Sequence record: MN158212.1
Length of the DNA stretch: 44,592 nucleotides
Strand: one strand, 5' to 3'
DNA from: Escherichia phage BEK1-1
Shown: in pieces, positions 1 through 40,688 of the stretch
How positions within the stretch are numbered: position 1 is the first letter of the stretch
Layout: each line of letters starts with the position of its first letter
Translations under genes and position numbers: made by a program
Notes under the pieces: model-generated
The model's input: only the letters and a program-made list of their open reading frames with translations
The model's database searches: none
Told to the model about the DNA's origin: nothing

Positions 1-40
1 GCTGTAAACCAAGCATTTAGTGTTATAGTTTTCTAACAAG

Positions 41-68
41 AAAGCCCCGAAAGGGGCTTTATCTTTTA
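41..68. terminator. hairpin plus T-run downstream of ssb
   Basis: AAAGCCCC-GAAA-GGGGCTTT followed by ATCTTTTATC on the plus strand. Confidence 0.5.
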
Positions 69-494
69 TCAGAATGGGATGTCGTCCTCGAAGTTCTGTT
101 GCTGCTGAAGTTGCTGTTGCCGCTGAGGTTGCTGTTGCTGTTGCTGCGGCTGTTGCTGCTTCTGCGGTGCTGAATCACCGCGCTGACTAAACTCAAGTCG
201 CGGATTGTTCATGTTAATGGTTACGTAAGTCTTACCATCTTTATCCCTAACATCTACAGCCAGGCTTTCAGCGCTAACACTAACAACTTTACCTTCTTGA
301 AATGCATCATTGTACCAATCTAACATAGATTCTTTAGCGAATAAGACGGCACGATAATTTGTGTACTGTGATTGACCATCTTTATCTTTGTATCGCTCAC
401 TCAAATCAACTGCGAACATTTTCCAGTTACCATTAGCGTTTACGCCTTCTTTGGTGAATGGAGCGCGGCGAATGTGACCAGTAATTACGTGCAT
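69..494 (-). CDS. ssb: single-stranded DNA-binding protein
   Basis: 141 aa; OB-fold-like N-terminal part, Gln-rich linker, C-terminal acidic tip ...EDDIPF as in bacterial SSB (DDDIPF); RBS-like GAGAGA upstream. Confidence 0.85.
   Translation of the reverse strand: MHVITGHIRRAPFTKEGVNANGNWKMFAVDLSERYKDKDGQSQYTNYRAVLFAKESMLDWYNDAFQEGKVVSVSAESLAVDVRDKDGKTYVTINMNNPRLEFSQRGDSAPQKQQQPQQQQQQPQRQQQLQQQQNFEDDIPF
94..166 (-). repeat. imperfect CTG/TTG-rich (coding-strand CAG/CAA) simple repeat encoding the poly-Gln linker of SSB
   Basis: Direct reading: gctgttgctgttgctgcggctgttgctgcttctg; translates to QQQPQQQQQQPQRQQQLQQQQ. Confidence 0.8.
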
Positions 495-535
495 GTTTTT
501 ATCTCTCTATTGTTGGGGCCGAAGCATCTCTTAAA

Positions 536-1186
536 TTAGAATGTGTCGATTTGTCTTGATTCTACTTCAATCTTTTCTTCAGGACTACTTTTTTCTGCAA
601 CTTTCTTTGGTGTTGCTGGGTTGAAGCCATTCGCTGCATTTGCTTCAATCTCTGCCTTTCGCTCTATGATGTGGGGTTCGAAAACCTTCCATCCTGCTGC
701 ATCAAGTGACTGCTTAGCCTCCTTCCAGACATTGCGAAGCTCATCAAGAGTATTGCATTTCTCTAGCTCTCGCTTAAAGTCCTTAACACCTTTCGCTGCC
801 AGATTACCATCATCATCTGCCTGGCTAAGTCCTAACGCCGCTGTGATTCCGTAACGTCGAGCGTATGTTAAAGCTGAGCCGTAACCTTGTGCATCATTCT
901 TACTGATTGGTACGATCATCAAGAAGCTAACCCACTCTCCAGATTCAGCATGAAACAGTTTTGTCTCAACCTTCATGCGATTGGTTTGTTCATCATCAAG
1001 TACACTCTGGAACATAACAATCCCACACTCATCTAAACCAGGCTCAACGGCCGCCAAAACGTCTTCTAGGGTAGCGTACTTGTTCTTTAAGTGTGAGTTC
1101 TGCTTAGACTTTTCAGCCTTCGCAAATAGCGATTTGGCAGTGTGCAGCGCGTTTAAAATTGATTTGCATGATTCTGAAATTTGCAT
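536..1186 (-). CDS. ERF-family single-strand annealing protein (probable)
   Basis: Track ORF 536..1228; start moved to internal ATG (MQISESC...) preceded by GAGG, since the upstream codons overlap the promoter -10; motif GSALTYARRYGI; lies between ssb and the exonuclease. Confidence 0.5.
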   Translation of the reverse strand: MQISESCKSILNALHTAKSLFAKAEKSKQNSHLKNKYATLEDVLAAVEPGLDECGIVMFQSVLDDEQTNRMKVETKLFHAESGEWVSFLMIVPISKNDAQGYGSALTYARRYGITAALGLSQADDDGNLAAKGVKDFKRELEKCNTLDELRNVWKEAKQSLDAAGWKVFEPHIIERKAEIEANAANGFNPATPKKVAEKSSPEEKIEVESRQIDTF

Positions 1187-1262
1187 ATTTAACCTCGTTC
1201 GTCGTTGATGGGGGTAATCATACTCCACCTTTTAATTTTTTATTTAGCAATTTGTGCTATTT
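1187..1262 (-). promoter_or_regulatory. box promoter (AAATAGCACAAATTGCTAAA, 20 nt, TATGAT, leader ACCCCCATC...) upstream of the annealase gene
   Basis: Direct reading of the reverse complement; same architecture as the other copies. Confidence 0.5.
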
Positions 1263-2226
1263 AAATTTCTTTATACTTCCTCATATCCCACTCAGGAACA
1301 TCTAAGTCGATCTCTGTTGCGCCCATTGCATACCCTGGCCACACGTCATTCTCTTTACACTTCTTGTAAGTGGCAAGCGCCTCTAGATACATTCTGCGGC
1401 CAACCTTCAGTTGCTCTTCTGTAATATTGTAAAGCATTGGTAGGTAAGGCTCCTCTTTCTCGATTGCAAGTAGCCTTACTTTTGTTTTTCTTTTTTCATT
1501 AAAAGCCCTAACAAAAACATCGTGCTGTAGCGCCATTTTTGCAAGATAACCATGCTTGAATGCAAGCCTCCCAAACTCATGAGGTGATGCGCTGGCTGTC
1601 GTCTTCAGGTCGGTAATGCATACCATACCATCAACAACATCGACATGGTCAATTCGGATCTTAACGCCAACGCCAAGAATCTCACCGAAGATAGATAATT
1701 CCTTCTGCGCCGTCTCGCTATTAACGATTGCATTATATGCAGGAATATTGCAAAGAACCTCACGCATCGCGACAACTTTGTCATAGTCTGCTGCGCTAAC
1801 TAGCTCCTTGCCCTCTACAAGAGCCTGTGCGCTCTCCTGCTGCTCAATTAGCCATTTAACAGGCCAATCCTCACCAGATCGATACATCATCTCTACGAGC
1901 TCGCTATAACCCTTCCCGGAAGTGCCAGCCACGCCAACTTTTTTAAGTGCTGAAGCTAAACCTGCCTGGCTTGTAATTAAGCCTTCAATCGCGTCAAGGT
2001 CTGTAGCTCGAAGGTATTCTTTATCGAATACATCTTGCTCCAAAATCATCGTGTGGCTTAGTGTGCCGAACTTAAGCGCCTTGCTATCATTATTTCGCTG
2101 CTTAAATTTCCACTTCGCTGGTGATCCTTGGATAATCTCGACAAGTGAAGAGCCTGAGATGTGGTCAGTTTCAGCGTGGTAAGCCTCGTTGCTTAGTTCT
2201 TCTCGTGTGTAAACTCTGAAAGTCAT
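1261..2226 (-). CDS. PD-(D/E)XK family recombination exonuclease (YqaJ/RecE-like)
   Basis: 321 aa; ...IDHVDVVDGMVCITDLKTT... fits D...(D/E)xK; synteny with annealase and SSB. Confidence 0.55.
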   Translation of the reverse strand: MTFRVYTREELSNEAYHAETDHISGSSLVEIIQGSPAKWKFKQRNNDSKALKFGTLSHTMILEQDVFDKEYLRATDLDAIEGLITSQAGLASALKKVGVAGTSGKGYSELVEMMYRSGEDWPVKWLIEQQESAQALVEGKELVSAADYDKVVAMREVLCNIPAYNAIVNSETAQKELSIFGEILGVGVKIRIDHVDVVDGMVCITDLKTTASASPHEFGRLAFKHGYLAKMALQHDVFVRAFNEKRKTKVRLLAIEKEEPYLPMLYNITEEQLKVGRRMYLEALATYKKCKENDVWPGYAMGATEIDLDVPEWDMRKYKEI

Positions 2227-2420
2227 TTTATCTTAACCTCTACGTTTCTAAGTGATACATCTACAGGTATTTCACTGCATCCCATAATAGCTTTTGATAT
2301 GCCAGAGCATGTTGTTGTTATGTTTATCTCTCTTCCAGTTTCAAATTTTATCCTTATTCTTACCTCTGGATCTGATTCGTCGTTGTATGGTGACTTATTT
2401 ATGTCTATAAAAGCCTTCAT
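2223..2420 (-). CDS. hypothetical protein (65 aa)
   Basis: ORF overlapping the exonuclease start by 4 nt (coupled arrangement). Confidence 0.3.
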   Translation of the reverse strand: MKAFIDINKSPYNDESDPEVRIRIKFETGREINITTTCSGISKAIMGCSEIPVDVSLRNVEVKIK

Positions 2421-2424
2421 ATTT

Positions 2425-2823
2425 TTACTCCTTAACCTTAACTACTTTAACAGACTTCAAATCTTCTTCAGTGAAGTATCCGCTCAGTACATCCCTAGCT
2501 TCCTCTTTAGTCTCGAATCTGTCAGCCTCGCTCTTATTCGTGGTGTATCCAGCTGGGCCACCAAAATAGCAGTCGCCGAACAGTGCGTTGTTTTTCTCTT
2601 TGATAATGTAGTAGGTCATTTCTGCATCTCTCTGGTTGTTTGCTTTGGATGAGGTAACTATATATTCGCAAGTACAGCCAGTCCAATTGGTTTCGCCAAT
2701 CGTTGATTCAAACTTACGCGTGAATATTTGTAATTCTGTGTAGGCATTGGCACTAGTTACGTTTCTTGGCATCTCATCCCAGATATAGCTCAATGTAACC
2801 ATCGTGTATATCGTGTATATCAT
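2425..2823 (-). CDS. hypothetical protein (132 aa; start uncertain)
   Basis: First gene leftward of divergent control region A; no recognisable motif. Confidence 0.35.
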   Translation of the reverse strand: MIYTIYTMVTLSYIWDEMPRNVTSANAYTELQIFTRKFESTIGETNWTGCTCEYIVTSSKANNQRDAEMTYYIIKEKNNALFGDCYFGGPAGYTTNKSEADRFETKEEARDVLSGYFTEEDLKSVKVVKVKE

Positions 2824-2927
2824 TTATTGCTGATGGTGCATTGGTATAGCTGCCGTGCAATACTGTATAAATCCACATGATACTAAAATTATAACCGGAA
2901 CACTCCAGAACAGTAGTTACATGATAT

Positions 2928-2985
2928 ACACAGTAATATATATAATAATAATAATAATATTAAAAGGTTGATATATATAGATATT
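2928..2985. repeat. AT-rich element copy 1: ACACAGTA-(ATA)n-TAAAAGGTTGATATATATAGATATT
   Basis: Near-identical copy at about 29732..29797 with a different number of ATA units; core TATCAACCTTTTA (minus strand) fits the IHF consensus WATCAANNNNTTR. Confidence 0.7.
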
Positions 2986-3104
2986 TTAATGTAACTATTG
3001 CGTAAATTGGCGTAACAGAGCGTATATCATTTTTCGCGGATGGGATTGCATACATCGAGTTACATCGGTTACGTGTAACTGTGATTTGTGGTGAAATTGG
3101 CGAT

Positions 3105-3150
3105 AAATAGCACTAATTGCTAAAGACAACTGACTATCTTTAGGTATATT
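3105..3150 (+). promoter_or_regulatory. box promoter (AAATAGCACTAATTGCTAAA, 20 nt, TATATT) upstream of the Rha-like gene
   Basis: Direct reading. Confidence 0.5.
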
Positions 3151-3222
3151 TAGGCGCATGGCGGCAATGGTGTTGTCTGATCTACCGATTTTCGGTAGAC
3201 ATAAATAACTGGAGAGAATGAA

Positions 3223-3870
3223 ATGAACATTGAAGTGTGCAAAGAACAATCAAAAACCATGATGAGCACAAAGGAAATCGCAGAGTTAACCGGCAAACGT
3301 CATGATCACGTCGTTCGCGACACAAAGGAAATGATCAATGAATTGTTACATTATAACGATGCCCCAGATTTGGGTCATGATGATTATCAACTACTTACAG
3401 ACAATCGAGGCTATACATCTGAGATTTTACTCAACAAGGAACTAACCGAAACGCTAATCACTGGCTACAGTGTCGTACTTCGCCACAAAGTAATCCGCAG
3501 GCTTCATGAACTTGAGGCTTTAGTTAAAAAACAAGCGGAAGTAATCAGCCAGATGGTAAGCATTGATGAGCTTAAAGAGGTTCGAATGATGCTTGGTGTG
3601 GCTAATGCGCAGAATGCACACCTGAGCCAGCGCATTGTTGCAGAGCAAAGAATAAATGAGATCTTACTCATGGATAAGAGTACCGATGAAAAACTAGACA
3701 TGCTGGCTTGTGAGGCTCGCCAGTGTTGGGTTAGTCGATCTGATGAGATGGAGGAAAGATTTAAGTATGAAGCCCAATGCTTCGCCCTTAAAGAAAAGAA
3801 TGATGCGCTGACCGGATTGATTGAGAATAATCTCGGCATTGACATCAAGCTGCTGCTGGAAAAGAAATAG
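3223..3870 (+). CDS. Rha-family phage regulatory protein (antirepressor-like)
   Basis: N-terminal ...STKEIAELTGKRHDHVVRDTKEM... resembles the Rha signature; C-terminal half coiled-coil-like; RBS GGAGAG. Confidence 0.5.
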   Translation: MNIEVCKEQSKTMMSTKEIAELTGKRHDHVVRDTKEMINELLHYNDAPDLGHDDYQLLTDNRGYTSEILLNKELTETLITGYSVVLRHKVIRRLHELEALVKKQAEVISQMVSIDELKEVRMMLGVANAQNAHLSQRIVAEQRINEILLMDKSTDEKLDMLACEARQCWVSRSDEMEERFKYEAQCFALKEKNDALTGLIENNLGIDIKLLLEKK

Positions 3871-28363: not shown

Positions 28364-28385
28364 TGTTTAGCAATTCGTGCTATTC
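28340..28385 (-). promoter_or_regulatory. box promoter (AATAGCACGAATTGCTAAA, 20 nt, TATGAT, leader ACCCAATCGAAAACA)
   Basis: Direct reading; the box overlaps the TAG stop of the upstream gene. Confidence 0.55.
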
Positions 28386-28904
28386 GCCGATAATAAGCGA
28401 TTTAGCTTTCCGGTAGAAATCGACAGCCCTCTCCACCTCTTCCTCATTGTACCGCAAGTGGTATGGTAGTCTACTAGCGTGCTCACCTTCGTAAGTTTTG
28501 AAGTTAGGTTGCCAGTACTCATCAATGATAGCTGGGTGGACGTAAATCTTATCCCCAATGAGGAAAACTAGATTCATTTCCTCTAGATCAGGGATTAGTT
28601 CGTCCTTAATGCGAGCTATGATATCAAGGCATCCTACGAACGGCTTAATCTTTCGAGCCTCCTCGTGTACAGACTTGACACCCACCACTCCCCTTCCGTT
28701 TCTTGCCATCTTCCTGATCAGCTTAATCAGAACTCCCAGCGCTTCATCTCTGTAGACTTCCGATGCATCAGGCTGGCCCCATAGGTGCTGAACATGCCGA
28801 TAACCGTTAGCATTGATTGCAACCCGCAGTGGCGGTAGCCCATCCTGGATAGCAATATTCATAATCTGCTCGTCCGTCAGTTTCTCTTCATCGAAATTAA
28901 ACAT
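28380..28904 (-). CDS. hypothetical protein (174 aa), short paralogue of the 527-aa P-loop protein
   Basis: N-terminus MFNFDEEKLTDEQIMNIAIQDGLPPLRVAINANGYR and C-terminus ...NGRGVVGVKSVHEEARKIKPF...LIGDKIYVHP align with the ends of ORF 31388..32971. Confidence 0.5.
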   Translation of the reverse strand: MFNFDEEKLTDEQIMNIAIQDGLPPLRVAINANGYRHVQHLWGQPDASEVYRDEALGVLIKLIRKMARNGRGVVGVKSVHEEARKIKPFVGCLDIIARIKDELIPDLEEMNLVFLIGDKIYVHPAIIDEYWQPNFKTYEGEHASRLPYHLRYNEEEVERAVDFYRKAKSLIIGE

Positions 28905-29452
28905 CAGTTAGTCTCCTTAATCATTTCATAGTAACGGGCCAGGGCAATGAGAGCGCCTTCTTTCTGCTCGCCTTGCAGGTCGATAACGTTAGGTGTGATC
29001 TTGAGTAACCGAGCCTTGAACCTTTCAATGATGGCGGCCTCCTTCTCTGCTTCCTGCTTCTTCTTCTCACGATTTCCAGTCCAGTGAGCGCCGTTCTCAA
29101 TATAGATTACCAGGTATTTATCAGCACCATCGCCGTCGAAATTACCCGGCCTGGTTTGCTCGCCTTCATCGTCAATCCAGATGAACTTGTAGCGCGCTCG
29201 CTTGTTGGCGTCTCGTAGTTCAGTCATTCGCGATACGGTATTGTAGATGTACGAGTTCTTGAGTTCAGGCATCGACCTGTCTGCCAGGTTTAGGATCTCG
29301 TCAGTCTCTTCGTCATACTCCATTTCGGGATATGGCTTGCCGCGAACAAGTTTGAATATCTGGCTTACCGGAACTTTGAACTCGCCGTTCTCAGACGCCA
29401 TTGCGTTACGGACCATCTCACGGATAACTTCGCCAAGTGTTAATTTCTGCAT
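28904..29452 (-). CDS. hypothetical protein (182 aa)
   Basis: First gene leftward of divergent control region B. Confidence 0.4.
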   Translation of the reverse strand: MQKLTLGEVIREMVRNAMASENGEFKVPVSQIFKLVRGKPYPEMEYDEETDEILNLADRSMPELKNSYIYNTVSRMTELRDANKRARYKFIWIDDEGEQTRPGNFDGDGADKYLVIYIENGAHWTGNREKKKQEAEKEAAIIERFKARLLKITPNVIDLQGEQKEGALIALARYYEMIKETN

Positions 29453-29731
29453 GTTGATACCTCGTTTCGTTTACTTCGTTTCAGTGATTGCCATCTTGCC
29501 ACTTGTTTACGTGTCGGTCAACGTATTTTTATGTCTATTTCATCGCGGATACGTTTTTCGGCCTCCAAGTTAGCGTCAGCACTGGTTGTAAACGTGCCGT
29601 ATCCCCTGTGTACAGTTTTGTAGGGTACTTTCCTATATATGTGCCTTTTTATTCCTACAATGTCATCCCATTCTGACAAGTGTCAGAATATCTGCACGGA
29701 ACATATCAACTATTGCCTCCGTGAGCGGTAT

Positions 29732-29797
29732 ACACAGTATACATATATATAATAATAATAATAATAATAAAGTAAAAGGTTGATATATATAGATATT
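29732..29797. repeat. AT-rich element copy 2: ACACAGTA-(ATA)n-TAAAAGGTTGATATATATAGATATT
   Basis: Near-identical to 2928..2985, with a longer ATA run. Confidence 0.7.
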
Positions 29798-29983
29798 ATA
29801 TTGTATATCGTGTGTATATCTCGCGTAAAAACGTAGGTTAGTGGTCACTAACTTTTGTGACGACACTGAGTATACGGAGGATACGCGTATATCGATGAGA
29901 ACCTTACCGATTGGTAAAAAATCAACTTGTATGGTAGTCCATCCATCTTTCATTCACTCACTCACCACTTTATTTTACTTTTC

Positions 29984-30069
29984 GCAACAATCAAAGACAT
30001 CATTGCATCTGAAGCAATATTGCTGTATATGCAATAATCATGTGAATCATTGCAATATCTGCAACAATC
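29984..30069. repeat. iteron-like cluster (GCAACAATC x2, ATCATTGCA x2, palindrome GCAATATTGC)
   Basis: Direct reading of gcaacaatcaaagacatcattgcatctgaagcaatattgctgtatatgcaataatcatgtgaatcattgcaatatctgcaacaatcc. Confidence 0.5.
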
Positions 30070-30085
30070 CATAAATCTGACGAAT

Positions 30086-30129
30086 GGCACTTTTTGCTAA
30101 AGACACTGGAGGTCATGGAGGATATAGTT
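30086..30129 (+). promoter_or_regulatory. box promoter, half-box variant (CACTTTTTGCTAAA, about 20 nt, TATAGT, leader AACTCATCAAAACGAGG)
   Basis: Direct reading. Confidence 0.45.
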
Positions 30130-30154
30130 AACTCATCAAAACGAGGAGATAGAA

Positions 30155-30334
30155 ATGAAGATTGATAAAGATGAACTTCGTAACGAATGCGCACTGATTG
30201 GGCTTAATGAAGATTACACGAAACTTGTGGTGCGCGGAAAGTTAGACATTGACTTGGCTAAGCAATTCCAGTCAGAAGATGAATTCATGTGCTGTGATGG
30301 GCTTGGCTGCGCAGAATGTTTACCATTTATTTGA
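30155..30334 (+). CDS. hypothetical Cys-rich small protein (59 aa)
   Basis: Below the track cutoff; GAGGAG RBS; C-terminal CCDGLGCAEC cluster. Confidence 0.4.
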   Translation: MKIDKDELRNECALIGLNEDYTKLVVRGKLDIDLAKQFQSEDEFMCCDGLGCAECLPFI

Positions 30335-31387: not shown

Positions 31388-32971
31388 ATGTTCGATTTCA
31401 ACGAAGATAAACTATCTGTTGAACAGGTTATGGCAATTGCTGCCGCAGAAAACCTCCCGCCCCTGCGCGTCGCCATTAATGCTAATGGCTATCGCCAGTC
31501 CCAGTCATTCTGGAAAGCACCAGTCGAGATTGATGCAGCTAATGACAAGTATCCAGTAATCTCACTAGGTAATGACATTGATGTTGTTGGTAAGCTGTCA
31601 GCTAATATTGCCCGATCTGTTCAGTTCCCTGAGTCGTCAGCTTACATGCACTTCCTGGGGTGTATTTCCGCTGCAATGCTGGGTCGATTTACTGTTGAGT
31701 ATCACGGAACGCAGCAACCGACTTCGCTTTACGTCGTAACAAGCCAGCCACCATCCACTGGTAAATCAGCCATTAACTCGCTATCGATTGCTCCAATGAT
31801 TGCTGAGACTCAGCGACTAAATGAAGTTAGAAAGCGTGAGCGCAAGAAAATTATGGCAAAACTATCTGCATTATCGAAAGAGATGAAACAGGAAAAATCT
31901 CCGTCAGAGATGGCCTCTCTTTTTGAGGAGAAGGAGGAGTTGGAGGAAAAACTCGAGAAACTATGCGATATCGTTTTCCCAGTATCAGATACCACACCAG
32001 AAGGTCTGGCCCGAATCAACAACCGCCAGGGCAACTTTGCTGTAATCTCTGATGAGGCAACGAGTGTAAACTCACTACTTGGCATGACCTATGGTGACGG
32101 CTCAAAGAAAACGAACAGCGAACTGGTACTGAAGGCATGGGATGCTGGTAACGTATCTATCGCTCGCGCTAACGCTGAAAACAACATGAGTTTTGTTGCT
32201 ATGGGTTGCATCTCTGTAATTGCGCAGGATGAGACAATCAACGCTATCATGAACGCTGGCGCGCGTGGTATCGGTGTATCTGAGCGTTTCCTGCTTGTAC
32301 GTGAAAAGTCATTCCTTGGCGAGCGTGTATTCGTTGATGAAAATGGCGAATCGACTTATGAACCAATTGATGCCGGGTTGAAGGCTGATTACTTCCGTTT
32401 AGTTCACGAAATCATGAATGAGCAAGATGTAAAGTTGACGGTGAGCAACTCAGCGATGAAATATCTCAACCGTGCACGTCAGGAAATGGAGCCTCATCTT
32501 GCTGACGGCGGTAAGTATTCCCACACAATGTTGCGCGGCGCGCTGGGTAAGTTCGATAAACAGGCTATAAGGATTGCAGCCGTTCTTCACACAGTTCGCA
32601 ACTGGTTCAACCCTAACGGTGGGAGTCCACAGAAGTCCAGAGAAATCGAGCTCGACACCATGCAAGAGGCTGTGATTATGTTCCAGGAACTGAGTAAGAC
32701 TTATTTGTCATCTGCCAACGCTGCGGGTCACGCTGGCGACAATGCAGAGATGAATAAGCTGATTGATATCCTGATTAAGCAAGGCAAAAACGGGAAAGGA
32801 GTAGTAGGTATTCGTTCGCTATATGAAGCGGCTCGCAAGGTTAAGCCATTCGAGGCTCAGGCTGGAGTGATGACGAAGATTAAAGATCACCTGCTGCCAA
32901 TGCTTGATGAGAAAAACTATACGTGCCTGATTGGTGATAAGGTTTACATTAATCCGCGACTTCTGGGGTGA
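31388..32971 (+). CDS. P-loop NTPase-like protein (527 aa), long paralogue of ORF 28380..28904
   Basis: Walker-A-like ...TSQPPSTGKSAI..., Walker-B-like ...FAVISDEAT... about 100 aa later; N- and C-terminal about 45 and 65 aa match the 174-aa protein. Confidence 0.5.
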   Translation: MFDFNEDKLSVEQVMAIAAAENLPPLRVAINANGYRQSQSFWKAPVEIDAANDKYPVISLGNDIDVVGKLSANIARSVQFPESSAYMHFLGCISAAMLGRFTVEYHGTQQPTSLYVVTSQPPSTGKSAINSLSIAPMIAETQRLNEVRKRERKKIMAKLSALSKEMKQEKSPSEMASLFEEKEELEEKLEKLCDIVFPVSDTTPEGLARINNRQGNFAVISDEATSVNSLLGMTYGDGSKKTNSELVLKAWDAGNVSIARANAENNMSFVAMGCISVIAQDETINAIMNAGARGIGVSERFLLVREKSFLGERVFVDENGESTYEPIDAGLKADYFRLVHEIMNEQDVKLTVSNSAMKYLNRARQEMEPHLADGGKYSHTMLRGALGKFDKQAIRIAAVLHTVRNWFNPNGGSPQKSREIELDTMQEAVIMFQELSKTYLSSANAAGHAGDNAEMNKLIDILIKQGKNGKGVVGIRSLYEAARKVKPFEAQAGVMTKIKDHLLPMLDEKNYTCLIGDKVYINPRLLG

Positions 32972-34521: not shown

Positions 34522-34698
34522 CTAGTCAGCGATAATAAATTCAACTAACGAGCCATCAATCGGCGCTAAAATGTGCGTCATATCGTCGCCATAAATCTTG
34601 TAGTATCCATCGCCCTGGTACTCTGCGTTGTACGGCTGGTTAACTGTAAATGGCAGTGTCTTGGAATTGTTTTTGGTGCAATAAATCATTTTAGTCAT
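34522..34698 (-). CDS. hypothetical protein (58 aa)
   Basis: Below the track cutoff; RBS GAGGAAACACAAAATG; box promoter upstream. Confidence 0.35.
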   Translation of the reverse strand: MTKMIYCTKNNSKTLPFTVNQPYNAEYQGDGYYKIYGDDMTHILAPIDGSLVEFIIAD

Positions 34699-34739
34699 TT
34701 TGTGTTTCCTCGTTTAGTTTATCTCGTTTCGATGTGGTG

Positions 34740-34786
34740 ATTATGCCGCATTTCTACGGCATTAGTTAGGCAAAAAGTGCTATTTA
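34740..34786 (-). promoter_or_regulatory. box promoter, half-box variant (AAATAGCAC..., 20 nt, CATAAT, leader ACCACATCGAAACGAG)
   Basis: Direct reading of the reverse complement. Confidence 0.45.
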
Positions 34787-35265
34787 CCGTGCCTCTCTGT
34801 GAATTCTGGGTTACCCTCGTAAACTGACTTCGCATATGATACTGCTTCTTCTTTTGTGTAGAAGGTTTTGTAAACCCTGTTTTTATCAATCTGAATTTGA
34901 ACAAGCCACGGCTTTCCATCCCTTTTTATCTTATTTATGAAGTAAACACCTGTAACTCCTGATGTGTTATCCTTTCTCATAGCTGCATTCTTGCAGTTAA
35001 CCCATCTATCTACGCATCTCAAATTCTCTATCCGATTATCGTGCTTAACTCCATTAATGTGATCGATTTCCATACCTTTAGGGACTTCTCCGTTATGCAT
35101 TTCCCATATTACTCGATGGGCAAAAGTCATCTTTGAAAACAGTTTAGTCCTAACGTACCCCCTCAAATCAATATACCCAGCCTTAACTCCGTTATAAGAT
35201 GATACCCTGTGGTTCTTTCTGTACAAATCACCATTTGAATATTCGTAATAATCGTGCCAATTCAT
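34780..35265 (-). CDS. HNH homing endonuclease with AP2-like DNA-binding domain
   Basis: ...AHRVIWEMH...EIDHINGVKHDNRIENLR... (HNH) and ...SGVTGVYF...KPWLVQI...KTFYTKEEA... (AP2-like). Confidence 0.7.
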   Translation of the reverse strand: MNWHDYYEYSNGDLYRKNHRVSSYNGVKAGYIDLRGYVRTKLFSKMTFAHRVIWEMHNGEVPKGMEIDHINGVKHDNRIENLRCVDRWVNCKNAAMRKDNTSGVTGVYFINKIKRDGKPWLVQIQIDKNRVYKTFYTKEEAVSYAKSVYEGNPEFTERHGK

Positions 35266-40202: not shown

Positions 40203-40688
40203 ATGAATGCAGTCGACAAGCGAACCATTAACGGTAATAACGGAACCATCCGCACTGAAGACAAAAAGCAACGGAAACGACCTTCAGGTTACTACGTTTT
40301 GAAAGATGAGGTAAGGGCGGGTTTACGTGCGCGGCTGGAAATTGTTCTTGATTTCTTCGGCACAAAGGCAAATATGGCAAAGCAATTAAAGGTAACACCA
40401 CAGGCTGTAGAGGAATGGTTTAAGCGCGGCATGATTTCTGCGCGCGGGGCTCAACTCTCACACAACTACTACAAGCGAACCGGGGAAGGCTTTCGCGCCA
40501 CATTCTGCCGACCAGATCTGCAATTCGACGGCAACGGCAAGCCTCTTACTCTACGTTGCAAAAAGCGTCACATGCTGCGTGTTGTTACTGAGGCTGAATT
40601 AGCCACCAAGCCAGAGTGTCGATCATGGCGCAAGATTAAGGAAGAGAATCGCAAAAAGCGAGAAGCAGAGAAAAATAGCACGAATTGA
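40203..40688 (+). CDS. putative HTH DNA-binding regulator (161 aa)
   Basis: ...FGTKANMAKQLKVTPQAVEEWFKRGMIS... resembles a Cro/CI-type helix-turn-helix; basic N- and C-termini. Confidence 0.45.
   Translation: MNAVDKRTINGNNGTIRTEDKKQRKRPSGYYVLKDEVRAGLRARLEIVLDFFGTKANMAKQLKVTPQAVEEWFKRGMISARGAQLSHNYYKRTGEGFRATFCRPDLQFDGNGKPLTLRCKKRHMLRVVTEAELATKPECRSWRKIKEENRKKREAEKNSTN

Follow-up and report, generated by a model that had tools for sequence, protein, structure and literature searches.

The 44,592-bp window analyzed here, the sequence record of Escherichia phage BEK1-1 (MN158212.1) to which all coordinates refer, represents a complete Rtp-like coliphage genome (Drexlerviridae, Braunvirinae). 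The records closest to it are Veterinaerplatzvirus vB_EcoS-12210I (~91%) and Guelphvirus EC3a (~90%), and its gene order is that of T1 and Rtp. Two intergenic regions of this genome each carry a copy of the AT-rich element which is the subject of this analysis. Region A (2824-3222) lies between the diverging genes 2425..2823 (minus strand) and 3223..3870 (plus strand), with the recE-erf-ssb operon leading leftward and the Rha, cor and membrane genes leading rightward. Region B (29453-30154) lies between the diverging genes 28904..29452 (minus strand) and 30155..30334 (plus strand), with a long series of leftward genes (structural, terminase and small early genes) and a rightward operon which carries a DUF3987 helicase gene at its end. 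An original prediction made from the window sequence had placed the element in two divergent non-coding control regions, and the coordinates of the flanking genes confirmed this placement. No paralogy was found between the first genes downstream of A and B.

The duplication itself was also confirmed. An identical ACACAGTA (2928-2935 and 29732-29739), a run of TA and AAT units and an exact 25-mer, TAAAAGGTTGATATATATAGATATT (2961-2985 and 29773-29797), were present in both places, and the two copies are direct repeats with a separation of 26,812 bp. A 24-mer search of the window which allowed up to three mismatches recovered only copies A and B, with 0 matches expected from shuffled sequences. 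Two alignments were used, A1, which contained 11 diverged A and B copies, and A4, the pairwise alignment of the A and B copies of the window. Similarity between A and B extended beyond the coordinates first given for the element, with approximately 80% of columns identical in an alignment of 194 columns. The 8 nt by which copy B exceeds copy A in length come from two indels, one of 3 nt and one of 5 nt, so the difference is not a mere addition of ATA units.

The 58-65 bp element is the easily melted centre of a module of approximately 180 bp which is present in two copies in T1-family coliphages. Within the two modules of the window the pentamer YGTAW was found at 18 sites in 367 bp compared with 2.9 expected (P 2e-9), and the order and orientation of the sites were identical in A and B: two minus-strand sites, the AT-rich centre, three to four plus-strand sites, and finally minus-strand sites closing on a plus-strand site (Table 1). 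The right array of module A reads TGTAAC, GCGTAA, GCGTAA and GCGTAT at a spacing of 10-11 bp. A looser, oriented YGTAW definition was required to describe these arrays, as the hexamer GCGTAA formed no cluster at 4 per 100 bp. The centre spans approximately 60 bp with approximately 90% A+T and many TA steps, and has the form (TA)4(AAT)n ... TATATATAGATA.

Table 1. Coordinates of the features of modules A and B and of their surroundings in the window.
Feature	Position	Strand	Description
Copy A of element	2928..2985	+	ACACAGTA, (TA)4(AAT)5, 25-mer TAAAAGGTTGATATATATAGATATT; AT-rich centre of module A
Copy B of element	29732..29797	+	ACACAGTA, TACA(TA)4(AAT)6, 25-mer TAAAAGGTTGATATATATAGATATT; AT-rich centre of module B
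Module A, whole	2912..3079	+	Non-coding, conserved from Braunvirinae to Rogunavirinae; upstream of recE-erf-ssb operon; terminal palindrome GTTACGTGTAAC (3068-3079)
Module B, whole	29722..29893	+	Paralogue of module A; upstream of gene-1 early operon, beside pac region; terminal palindrome ATACGCGTAT (29881-29890)
Left array, module A	2916..2930	-	Two YGTAW sites (2917, 2926), 9 bp apart; plus-strand GTTACAT, ATATACA
Right array, module A	2990..3025	+	Four YGTAW sites: 2990, 3001, 3011, 3021
Distal array, module A	3050..3079	.	Minus-strand YGTAW 3050, 3060, 3069; plus-strand 3074 closing palindrome
Left array, module B	29730..29743	-	Two YGTAW sites (29730, 29739), TATACA twice, 9 bp apart
Right array, module B	29802..29828	+	YGTAW 29802, 29813, 29824 (TGTAT, TGTAT, CGTAA), 11 bp spacing
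Distal array, module B	29872..29890	.	Minus-strand 29872, 29881; plus-strand 29886; palindrome ATACGCGTAT
IHF consensus match TATCAACCTTTTA, copy A	2961..2973	-	Matches WATCAANNNNTTR
IHF consensus match TATCAACCTTTTA, copy B	29773..29785	-	Matches WATCAANNNNTTR
Leftward sigma-70-like candidate, region B	29493..29521	-	TTGACC-N17-CAAGAT; gene-proximal; ~210 bp from AT element
Rightward promoter candidate, region A	3107..3150	+	21-nt repeat ATAGCACTAATTGCTAAA, AAGACA-N16-TATATT; bounds element, outside it
Rightward promoter candidate, region B	30084..30128	+	21-nt repeat ATGGCACTTTTTGCTAAA, AAGACA-N17-TATAGT
ATAGCACnnnTTGnTAAA copies	1243, 3107, 3867, 15092, 25946, 26736, 27407, 27860, 28366, 30084, 30729, 34766, 35320, 37677, 40173, 40675, 42236		
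Candidate pac / small-terminase recognition block	29984-30069		Three GCAAYAATC repeats; AATCATTGCA/GCAATATTGC palindromes; region B only

The same arrangement was found in alignment A1. Each copy opens with two TATACA-type repeats followed by TAATATATAT(AAT)n with an invariant (AAT)4, continues through a short linker into TAAA.GGTTG.TATATATAGATATT, TGTAA and three GCGTA repeats placed 10 bp apart, and ends with a distal TACA/GTTAC array which terminates in a TACGYGTA palindrome. The ACG.GT columns were invariant in all 11 copies, as were the TACA columns of the left array. Pairing between the two sides of the element, as a cruciform or hairpin, was considered for the arms CAGTAGTTACAT / ATGTAACTATTG around copy A and for a 24-nt imperfect pair around copy B. 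It was rejected, as folds of the single-stranded DNA gave z values of only -0.1 to -1.9 and the flanking inverted repeats of 11 modules did not exceed those of shuffled sequences (P 0.06-1), and the sole bracket retained from the inverted-repeat analysis was the invariant TACA ... TGTA of alignment A1. A structured RNA was rejected when RNAalifold returned 0 pairs on this alignment and Rfam identified a tRNA alone. Coding sequence was rejected as well: no open frame was conserved across the element, those on the (ATT)n strand were as expected from composition and unconserved, and the frame which is open in relatives carries a stop in the window, across the element. A host or prophage source was rejected after a blastn search of 5,426 E. 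coli genomes gave no match to the element, and a 21-mer match in one metagenome locus (L035) stood in an unrelated context and was probably due to chance.

To compare related phages we used nine genomes (the window, 12210I, EC3a, Rtp, BEK6, Rao1, G8, Rogue1 and T1) and, as a tenth whole genome, Klebsiella phage KP36 (Webervirus, 50.7% GC; L041). When duplex stability was calculated from nearest-neighbour energies, the two least stable 60-bp segments were located at these two loci in 10/10 genomes (z 4.5-5.9). The third-ranked segment reached z 3.3-3.8 in nine genomes and 4.7 in KP36, where the two loci had z values of 5.9 and 5.6. The least stable 60-mer of the window starts at 2934 (-54.2 kcal/mol, z 5.7) and the second least stable at 29742 (-54.3 kcal/mol, z 5.7). 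Nearly all 40-mers with at least 90% A+T in the nine genomes were located at the counterparts of regions A and B, the one exception being in EC3a, and phage TLS carries related AT blocks at both loci. A blastn search with module A (query 23-188, window 2912-3077) identified 134 phage records of Braunvirinae and Rogunavirinae at 78-96% identity, and few non-coding sequences of the family are as well conserved as the module.

The distribution of TA-rich hexamers in the window was also recorded. TATATA is present in 13 copies in 44.6 kb, nine of them within the two intergenic regions, and ATATA in 99 copies, 32 of them within the same two regions, which indicates that TA-rich hexamers are almost restricted to the modules. 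Their scarcity elsewhere may reflect depletion through codon usage or avoidance of spurious melting or promoter sites.

Position was conserved together with sequence, as both modules were found upstream of the same two operons and in the same orientation in every lineage compared. This rule of position and orientation also held in TLS though its region A is non-divergent. It held in KP36 too, in which inversion of the recE operon and its transfer to a place beside the primase gene had carried module A along. The KP36 modules (256-480; 34620-34910) have the same geometry but are built from another repeat, GTAAGAT, with 12 of its 19 genome copies falling in the 712 bp taken up by the modules (P 3e-21). 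A 16-bp palindrome, GTAAGATTCATCTTAC, occurs twice among these GTAAGAT repeats, and the tract is itself a palindrome, (AAT)3(ATT)4. The arrays of T1 consist of CGATTA(AC) and GTAAY. The two KP36 modules have an exact block of 53 nt in common, so the copies within one genome are closer to each other than to their orthologues in another genus. A repeat motif which is specific to the lineage, in copies which are alike within each genome, points to recognition of the repeats by a phage-encoded, lineage-specific factor rather than by a factor of the host.

The two copies differed in their variability. Copy A was nearly invariant, whereas Braunvirinae which are otherwise similar carried at least three sequence types of copy B (window/12210I/BEK6; Rtp/G8; EC3a/Rao1), as determined by comparison of L003 1-185, L004 120-310 and L018 30-230 with window 29712-29900. 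From this difference region B seems to be a hotspot of mosaic exchange.

The length of the trinucleotide tract was surveyed in 39 copies from isolates, IMG/VR and metagenomes, which represented 29 distinct contexts. Of the 18 distinct copy A contexts, 17 had a distance of 35 nt from ACAYRGTA to the core and one had 36 nt; every type-1 copy B context bearing the anchor had 43 nt. The window has uninterrupted runs of (AAT)5 (copy A) and (AAT)6 (copy B), and the extra (fifth) AAT unit of its copy A results from substitutions (AAGAGT to AATATT) with no change in length. Essentially one length per locus among orthologues indicates that the tract is length-constrained, contrary to what is expected of a contingency repeat. 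The length of the ATA run does differ between copies A and B, as was originally proposed, but slippage was not supported since orthologues are essentially fixed at each locus, and a comparison of ATA copy number among isolates, which had been suggested as a check, gave these essentially constant distances.

That the element is a cis-acting site of some kind, either an unwinding element of an origin or a site for a phage protein, had been among the suggestions made for it, and in general terms this idea is supported by the coincidence of the two least stable segments of the genome with ordered repeat arrays. The reading which we prefer, and to which we would give a probability of roughly 0.4, is that the modules are iteron-flanked unwinding elements of a replication origin, present in two copies. 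A phage-encoded protein would oligomerise on the oppositely oriented arrays, melting of the AT-rich centre would be aided by negative supercoiling from the diverging flanking transcription, and the replicative helicase (a candidate is the DUF3987 helicase, 31388..32971) would then be loaded with the phage primase, such that the modules act as origins, doubled as in SPP1 oriL/oriR. Binding of protein, unwinding and origin activity are each proposed here from features of the DNA, namely the extreme and conserved instability of the helix, the oppositely oriented, helically phased arrays which flank it and the joint evolution of both copies in each genome. The family is moreover one with no known origin, and the phage encodes a DUF3987 helicase and a primase with no recognisable initiator. 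In the 2024 re-annotation of TLS an origin was searched for and none was found, and regulatory repeats were listed as an open question (PMC11447400).

The helicase itself offers a possible answer to which protein would read the arrays. Residues 438-526 of the DUF3987 helicase (31388..32971, plus strand) are approximately 33% identical to the core (residues 52-126) of a paralogous, free-standing early protein of 174 aa (28380..28904, minus strand). The C-terminal domain of the helicase has a winged-helix topology in the AlphaFold model (pLDDT 76), and the top Foldseek hits were all winged-helix domains, with E values above 0.1. A more specific and more tentative proposal is that both modules serve as replication origins in the T1 family, on which the DUF3987 protein would assemble as a helicase-initiator, head-to-head on oppositely oriented iterons around a centre of fixed length, perhaps modulated by the free-standing winged-helix paralogue. 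Recognition of both copies by one lineage-specific protein would keep them alike, and the copies might pair in the way that ori and crr of phage P4 pair with each other. A helicase domain together with a free-standing paralogue is reminiscent of the P4 alpha protein and Cnr, although the third helix of the winged-helix domain is acidic here, which makes DNA binding by this domain doubtful. Given this acidic helix and the insignificant structural matches, we did not accept the helicase C-terminal domain as the iteron binder and regard it as a lead only.

Several observations weigh against an origin. In addition to the acidic helix, no recognisable initiator was found among the proteins of the window, and a Pfam search of ten small early open reading frames for an initiator gave nothing usable. 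No transcriptome or origin mapping of any T1-like phage was found in the literature searched. The position of the modules upstream of the same operons is fixed, TLS and KP36 included, and with position and orientation fixed in this way a regulatory region fits at least equally well. The palindromes GTTACGTGTAAC of the window and GTAAGATTCATCTTAC, present twice in KP36, would suit a dimeric repressor. Unwinding elements usually tolerate sequence change, but the modules show conservation of (AAT)4 and TATATAGATA and a tract of fixed length. GC skew tracked gene orientation only and, since it follows transcription, it was set aside as uninformative for the location of an origin. Finally, one origin would suffice. 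An origin which depends on DnaA was rejected separately, as no exact DnaA box (TTWTNCACA) was present in any module; boxes with one mismatch numbered 0-2 per 300 bp compared with approximately 0.5 expected, which is slightly above background, and were unconserved.

A close parallel for a doubled origin is found in phage SPP1, in which, according to work by Pedre and colleagues in 1994, oriL and oriR reportedly contain AB repeats, the boxes bound by G38P, beside an AT-rich region. Both SPP1 and the phage studied here are virulent, pac-headful siphophages, and in both there are two distant modules of short boxes beside an AT-rich region; in SPP1 one phage factor recognizes both copies, which is only presumed for the modules here. 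Unlike this phage, SPP1 has its oriL inside the initiator gene while both modules of the window are intergenic, and there is no homology of sequence or protein with the modules, nor was a G38P-like initiator found in the window. The initiator-helicase origins of SaPI, SV40 and papillomavirus contain inverted arrays of short repeats around an AT-rich centre. They resemble the modules in having sites of pentamer to heptamer size in opposite orientation around an easily melted centre, and a helicase with extra terminal domains encoded nearby. They differ in that the helicase of the window is only a candidate binder with an acidic winged-helix domain, and in that the AT-rich centre here has a conserved sequence and a fixed length.

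A close rival to the origin reading, and one which we consider a realistic though still tentative alternative, is that the modules are a shared upstream regulatory region, a promoter or operator hub of two co-regulated early operons. A phage regulator would bind the flanking YGTAW sites, and the flexible, TA-rich centre would permit bending or looping or would act as a weak, overlapping promoter pair, through which early transcription would be boosted or else shut off later. The phage encodes two candidates for such a regulator, a Cro-like helix-turn-helix protein (40203..40688) and the Rha-family protein (3223..3870). The fixed placement of the modules with respect to the recE and gene-1 operons, orientation included, even in the rearranged KP36 genome and at the non-divergent region A of TLS, would be accounted for, as would the palindromic, operator-like sites and a constant tract length of the type expected for an architecture sensitive to spacing. 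Direct-repeat arrays at helical phasing are, however, less typical of dimeric repressors, and 60 bp with an instability z above 5 far exceeds what a promoter or UP element needs.

Whether promoters are present in the element bears directly on this alternative. The original prediction had proposed bidirectional early promoters at the element, and this was not clearly supported. Sigma-70-like matches inside the element reached no more than 9 of 12 positions, their counts per region were similar to those of shuffled sequences (5 vs 4.2; 6 vs 4.1), and better candidates were located elsewhere in both regions and in both flanking directions. A moderate leftward site, TTTACT-N16/18-TATTAT/TATATT (8-9.5 bits), does recur at the same relative place in the AT element in all lineages, so the element may contain a weak promoter, and software-predicted promoters had been annotated earlier on the element in EC3a and AHP42. 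These annotations and predictions, three in all, conflict on the hexamers, and that of AHP42 requires a spacer of 14 bp. The best leftward candidates of region B, as scored with an approximate position weight matrix, are found 200-250 bp from the AT centre, with equivalents in Rtp, T1, TLS and Rogue1. The KP36 record has an annotated promoter at the place equivalent to P01 of phage TLS, and the candidate at 29493-29521 of the window corresponds in position to the same P01 (Supplementary Table S1, PMC11447400).

The rightward candidates of both regions are associated with a different repeat. A 21-nt intergenic repeat of Drexlerviridae, aaATAGCACnnnTTGnTAAAA, has been described for TLS (PMC11447400). 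The sequence ATAGCACnnnTTGnTAAA of the window, found in 17 copies of 18 nt compared with 0.6 expected and mostly on the coding strand of the adjacent genes, is this same repeat. Several copies are followed by AAGACA/AAACAC-N16-17-TATAGT and a conserved CATCGAAACGA leader, and the presence of a -35-like hexamer beside the repeat suggests that it may be an activator site or UP-like element of the main class of phage promoters. The repeat resembles the modules in being a family-wide conserved non-coding motif, and it shares their intergenic regions, where a copy directly follows each module on the right. It differs from them in sequence, in its 17 copies at nearly every operon head compared with two, and in not being AT-extreme. 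The TLS paper describes the 21-nt repeat but not the AT-rich modules (PMC11447400).

The arrangement of oL/pL and oR/pR in phage lambda, the paralogous operator-promoter regions of two diverging early operons, offers a parallel for two operator regions, as these are also two related control regions which each head an early operon and which share short repeated or palindromic sites that co-evolve within the lineage. In contrast to lambda, T1-like phages are virulent, the lambda operators have no AT-rich centre of 60 bp, and the modules are located 60-250 bp upstream of the best promoter candidates and not over them. The origin and regulatory readings are compatible with each other.

A role for the host protein integration host factor (IHF) had also been proposed, in which IHF would bind TATCAACCTTTTA, bend the AT-rich DNA and activate bidirectional early promoters. 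We consider this improbable. An exact match to WATCAANNNNTTR is indeed present in both copies of the window, but the consensus occurs seven times in the window compared with 3.2 expected, and 7 of 100 shuffled sequences reached seven matches, so without significant enrichment the match alone carries little weight. The A/T-rich DNA said to lie next to the core was confirmed: the 5' flank on the minus strand of copy A, AAAATATCTATATATATCAACC, is AT-rich, though it is not an A-tract. When the consensus was scored within 150 bp either side of the module centre it was kept in copy A of 7/7 Braunvirinae but in copy B of only 3/7, where Rtp, G8, EC3a and Rao1 lack it. Rogue1 and T1 have it in neither copy, and yet all of these genomes have retained the module. 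The match is perhaps a by-product of the conserved core. IHF may still bind in the Braunvirinae, but it is, on these comparisons, not the defining feature of the element.

The gene directly to the right of copy A encodes a Rha-family (PF09669), anti-repressor-like protein, and this neighbour would favour an IHF site, as rha of phage phi80 is reportedly linked, in the Pfam description of this family, to growth on IHF-deficient hosts. Rtp, however, retains the copy A site while the Rha gene is missing at this locus, and in Rogunavirus Rha is found across the module, where it is co-transcribed with recombination genes. From this varied placement Rha behaves as a mobile accessory gene at this junction. 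Mu Pe and the sites upstream of lambda pL are examples of phage early promoters which are assisted by IHF, and the modules resemble these in the consensus, the A/T-rich 5' flank, the divergent region and the early promoters; they differ in that the consensus is not kept across orthologous or paralogous copies.

It is very unlikely that the element is the packaging (pac) recognition site. Copy B does lie within the intergenic region where the records of T1, TLS, Rtp, EC3a and KP36 open, and the T1 record annotates 1..2800 as a terminal repeat. The start of the T1 record is, however, approximately 200 bp from the AT element, in another repeat block (TGCAAC / GATTGTTGC / AATCATTGCA), and the counterpart of this block in the window (29984-30069) is present in region B only. 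Motifs of the block fill the T1 record from its pac end over 60 nt and the KP36 record from its start over ~190 nt, which makes this block a better pac candidate than the AT element. The other copy of the element, 27 kb distant and lacking a block of this type, is also at odds with the single pac site described for T1 and TLS (PMC11447400). The least probable alternative, a slippage-prone (ATA)n microsatellite whose length would tune or switch a promoter, would suit a run of 5 to 7 trinucleotide units which differs in length between the paralogous copies, but it can be given almost no weight with the distances of 35 nt and 43 nt so constant, apparent differences in unit number coming from base substitution, and (AAT)4 invariant in 11/11 diverged copies of alignment A1.

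No earlier description of the AT-rich modules was found in the literature searched, though the T1 or Rtp genome papers may mention them. The kind of element is already known on either reading, as an origin or as an operator region. What had been a two-copy oddity of one genome is now a defined, family-wide cis element with precise coordinates and with an internal grammar of oppositely oriented YGTAW or GTAAGAT arrays around an AT centre of fixed length, and two attractive readings of it, as an IHF site and as a variable microsatellite, have been corrected as unsupported.

T1 belongs to the seven classical T phages, and the Drexlerviridae are very commonly isolated coliphages which are responsible for fermentation failures. 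The replication origin of the T1 family and its early control circuitry nevertheless represent a gap in knowledge. If the modules are operators they would define the early regulon, which would be an ordinary finding. If they are origins, a long-standing gap for a classical phage would be closed, and the modules would offer a means to engineer or block these phages, for instance in origin-based plasmid amplification or as targets for defence.

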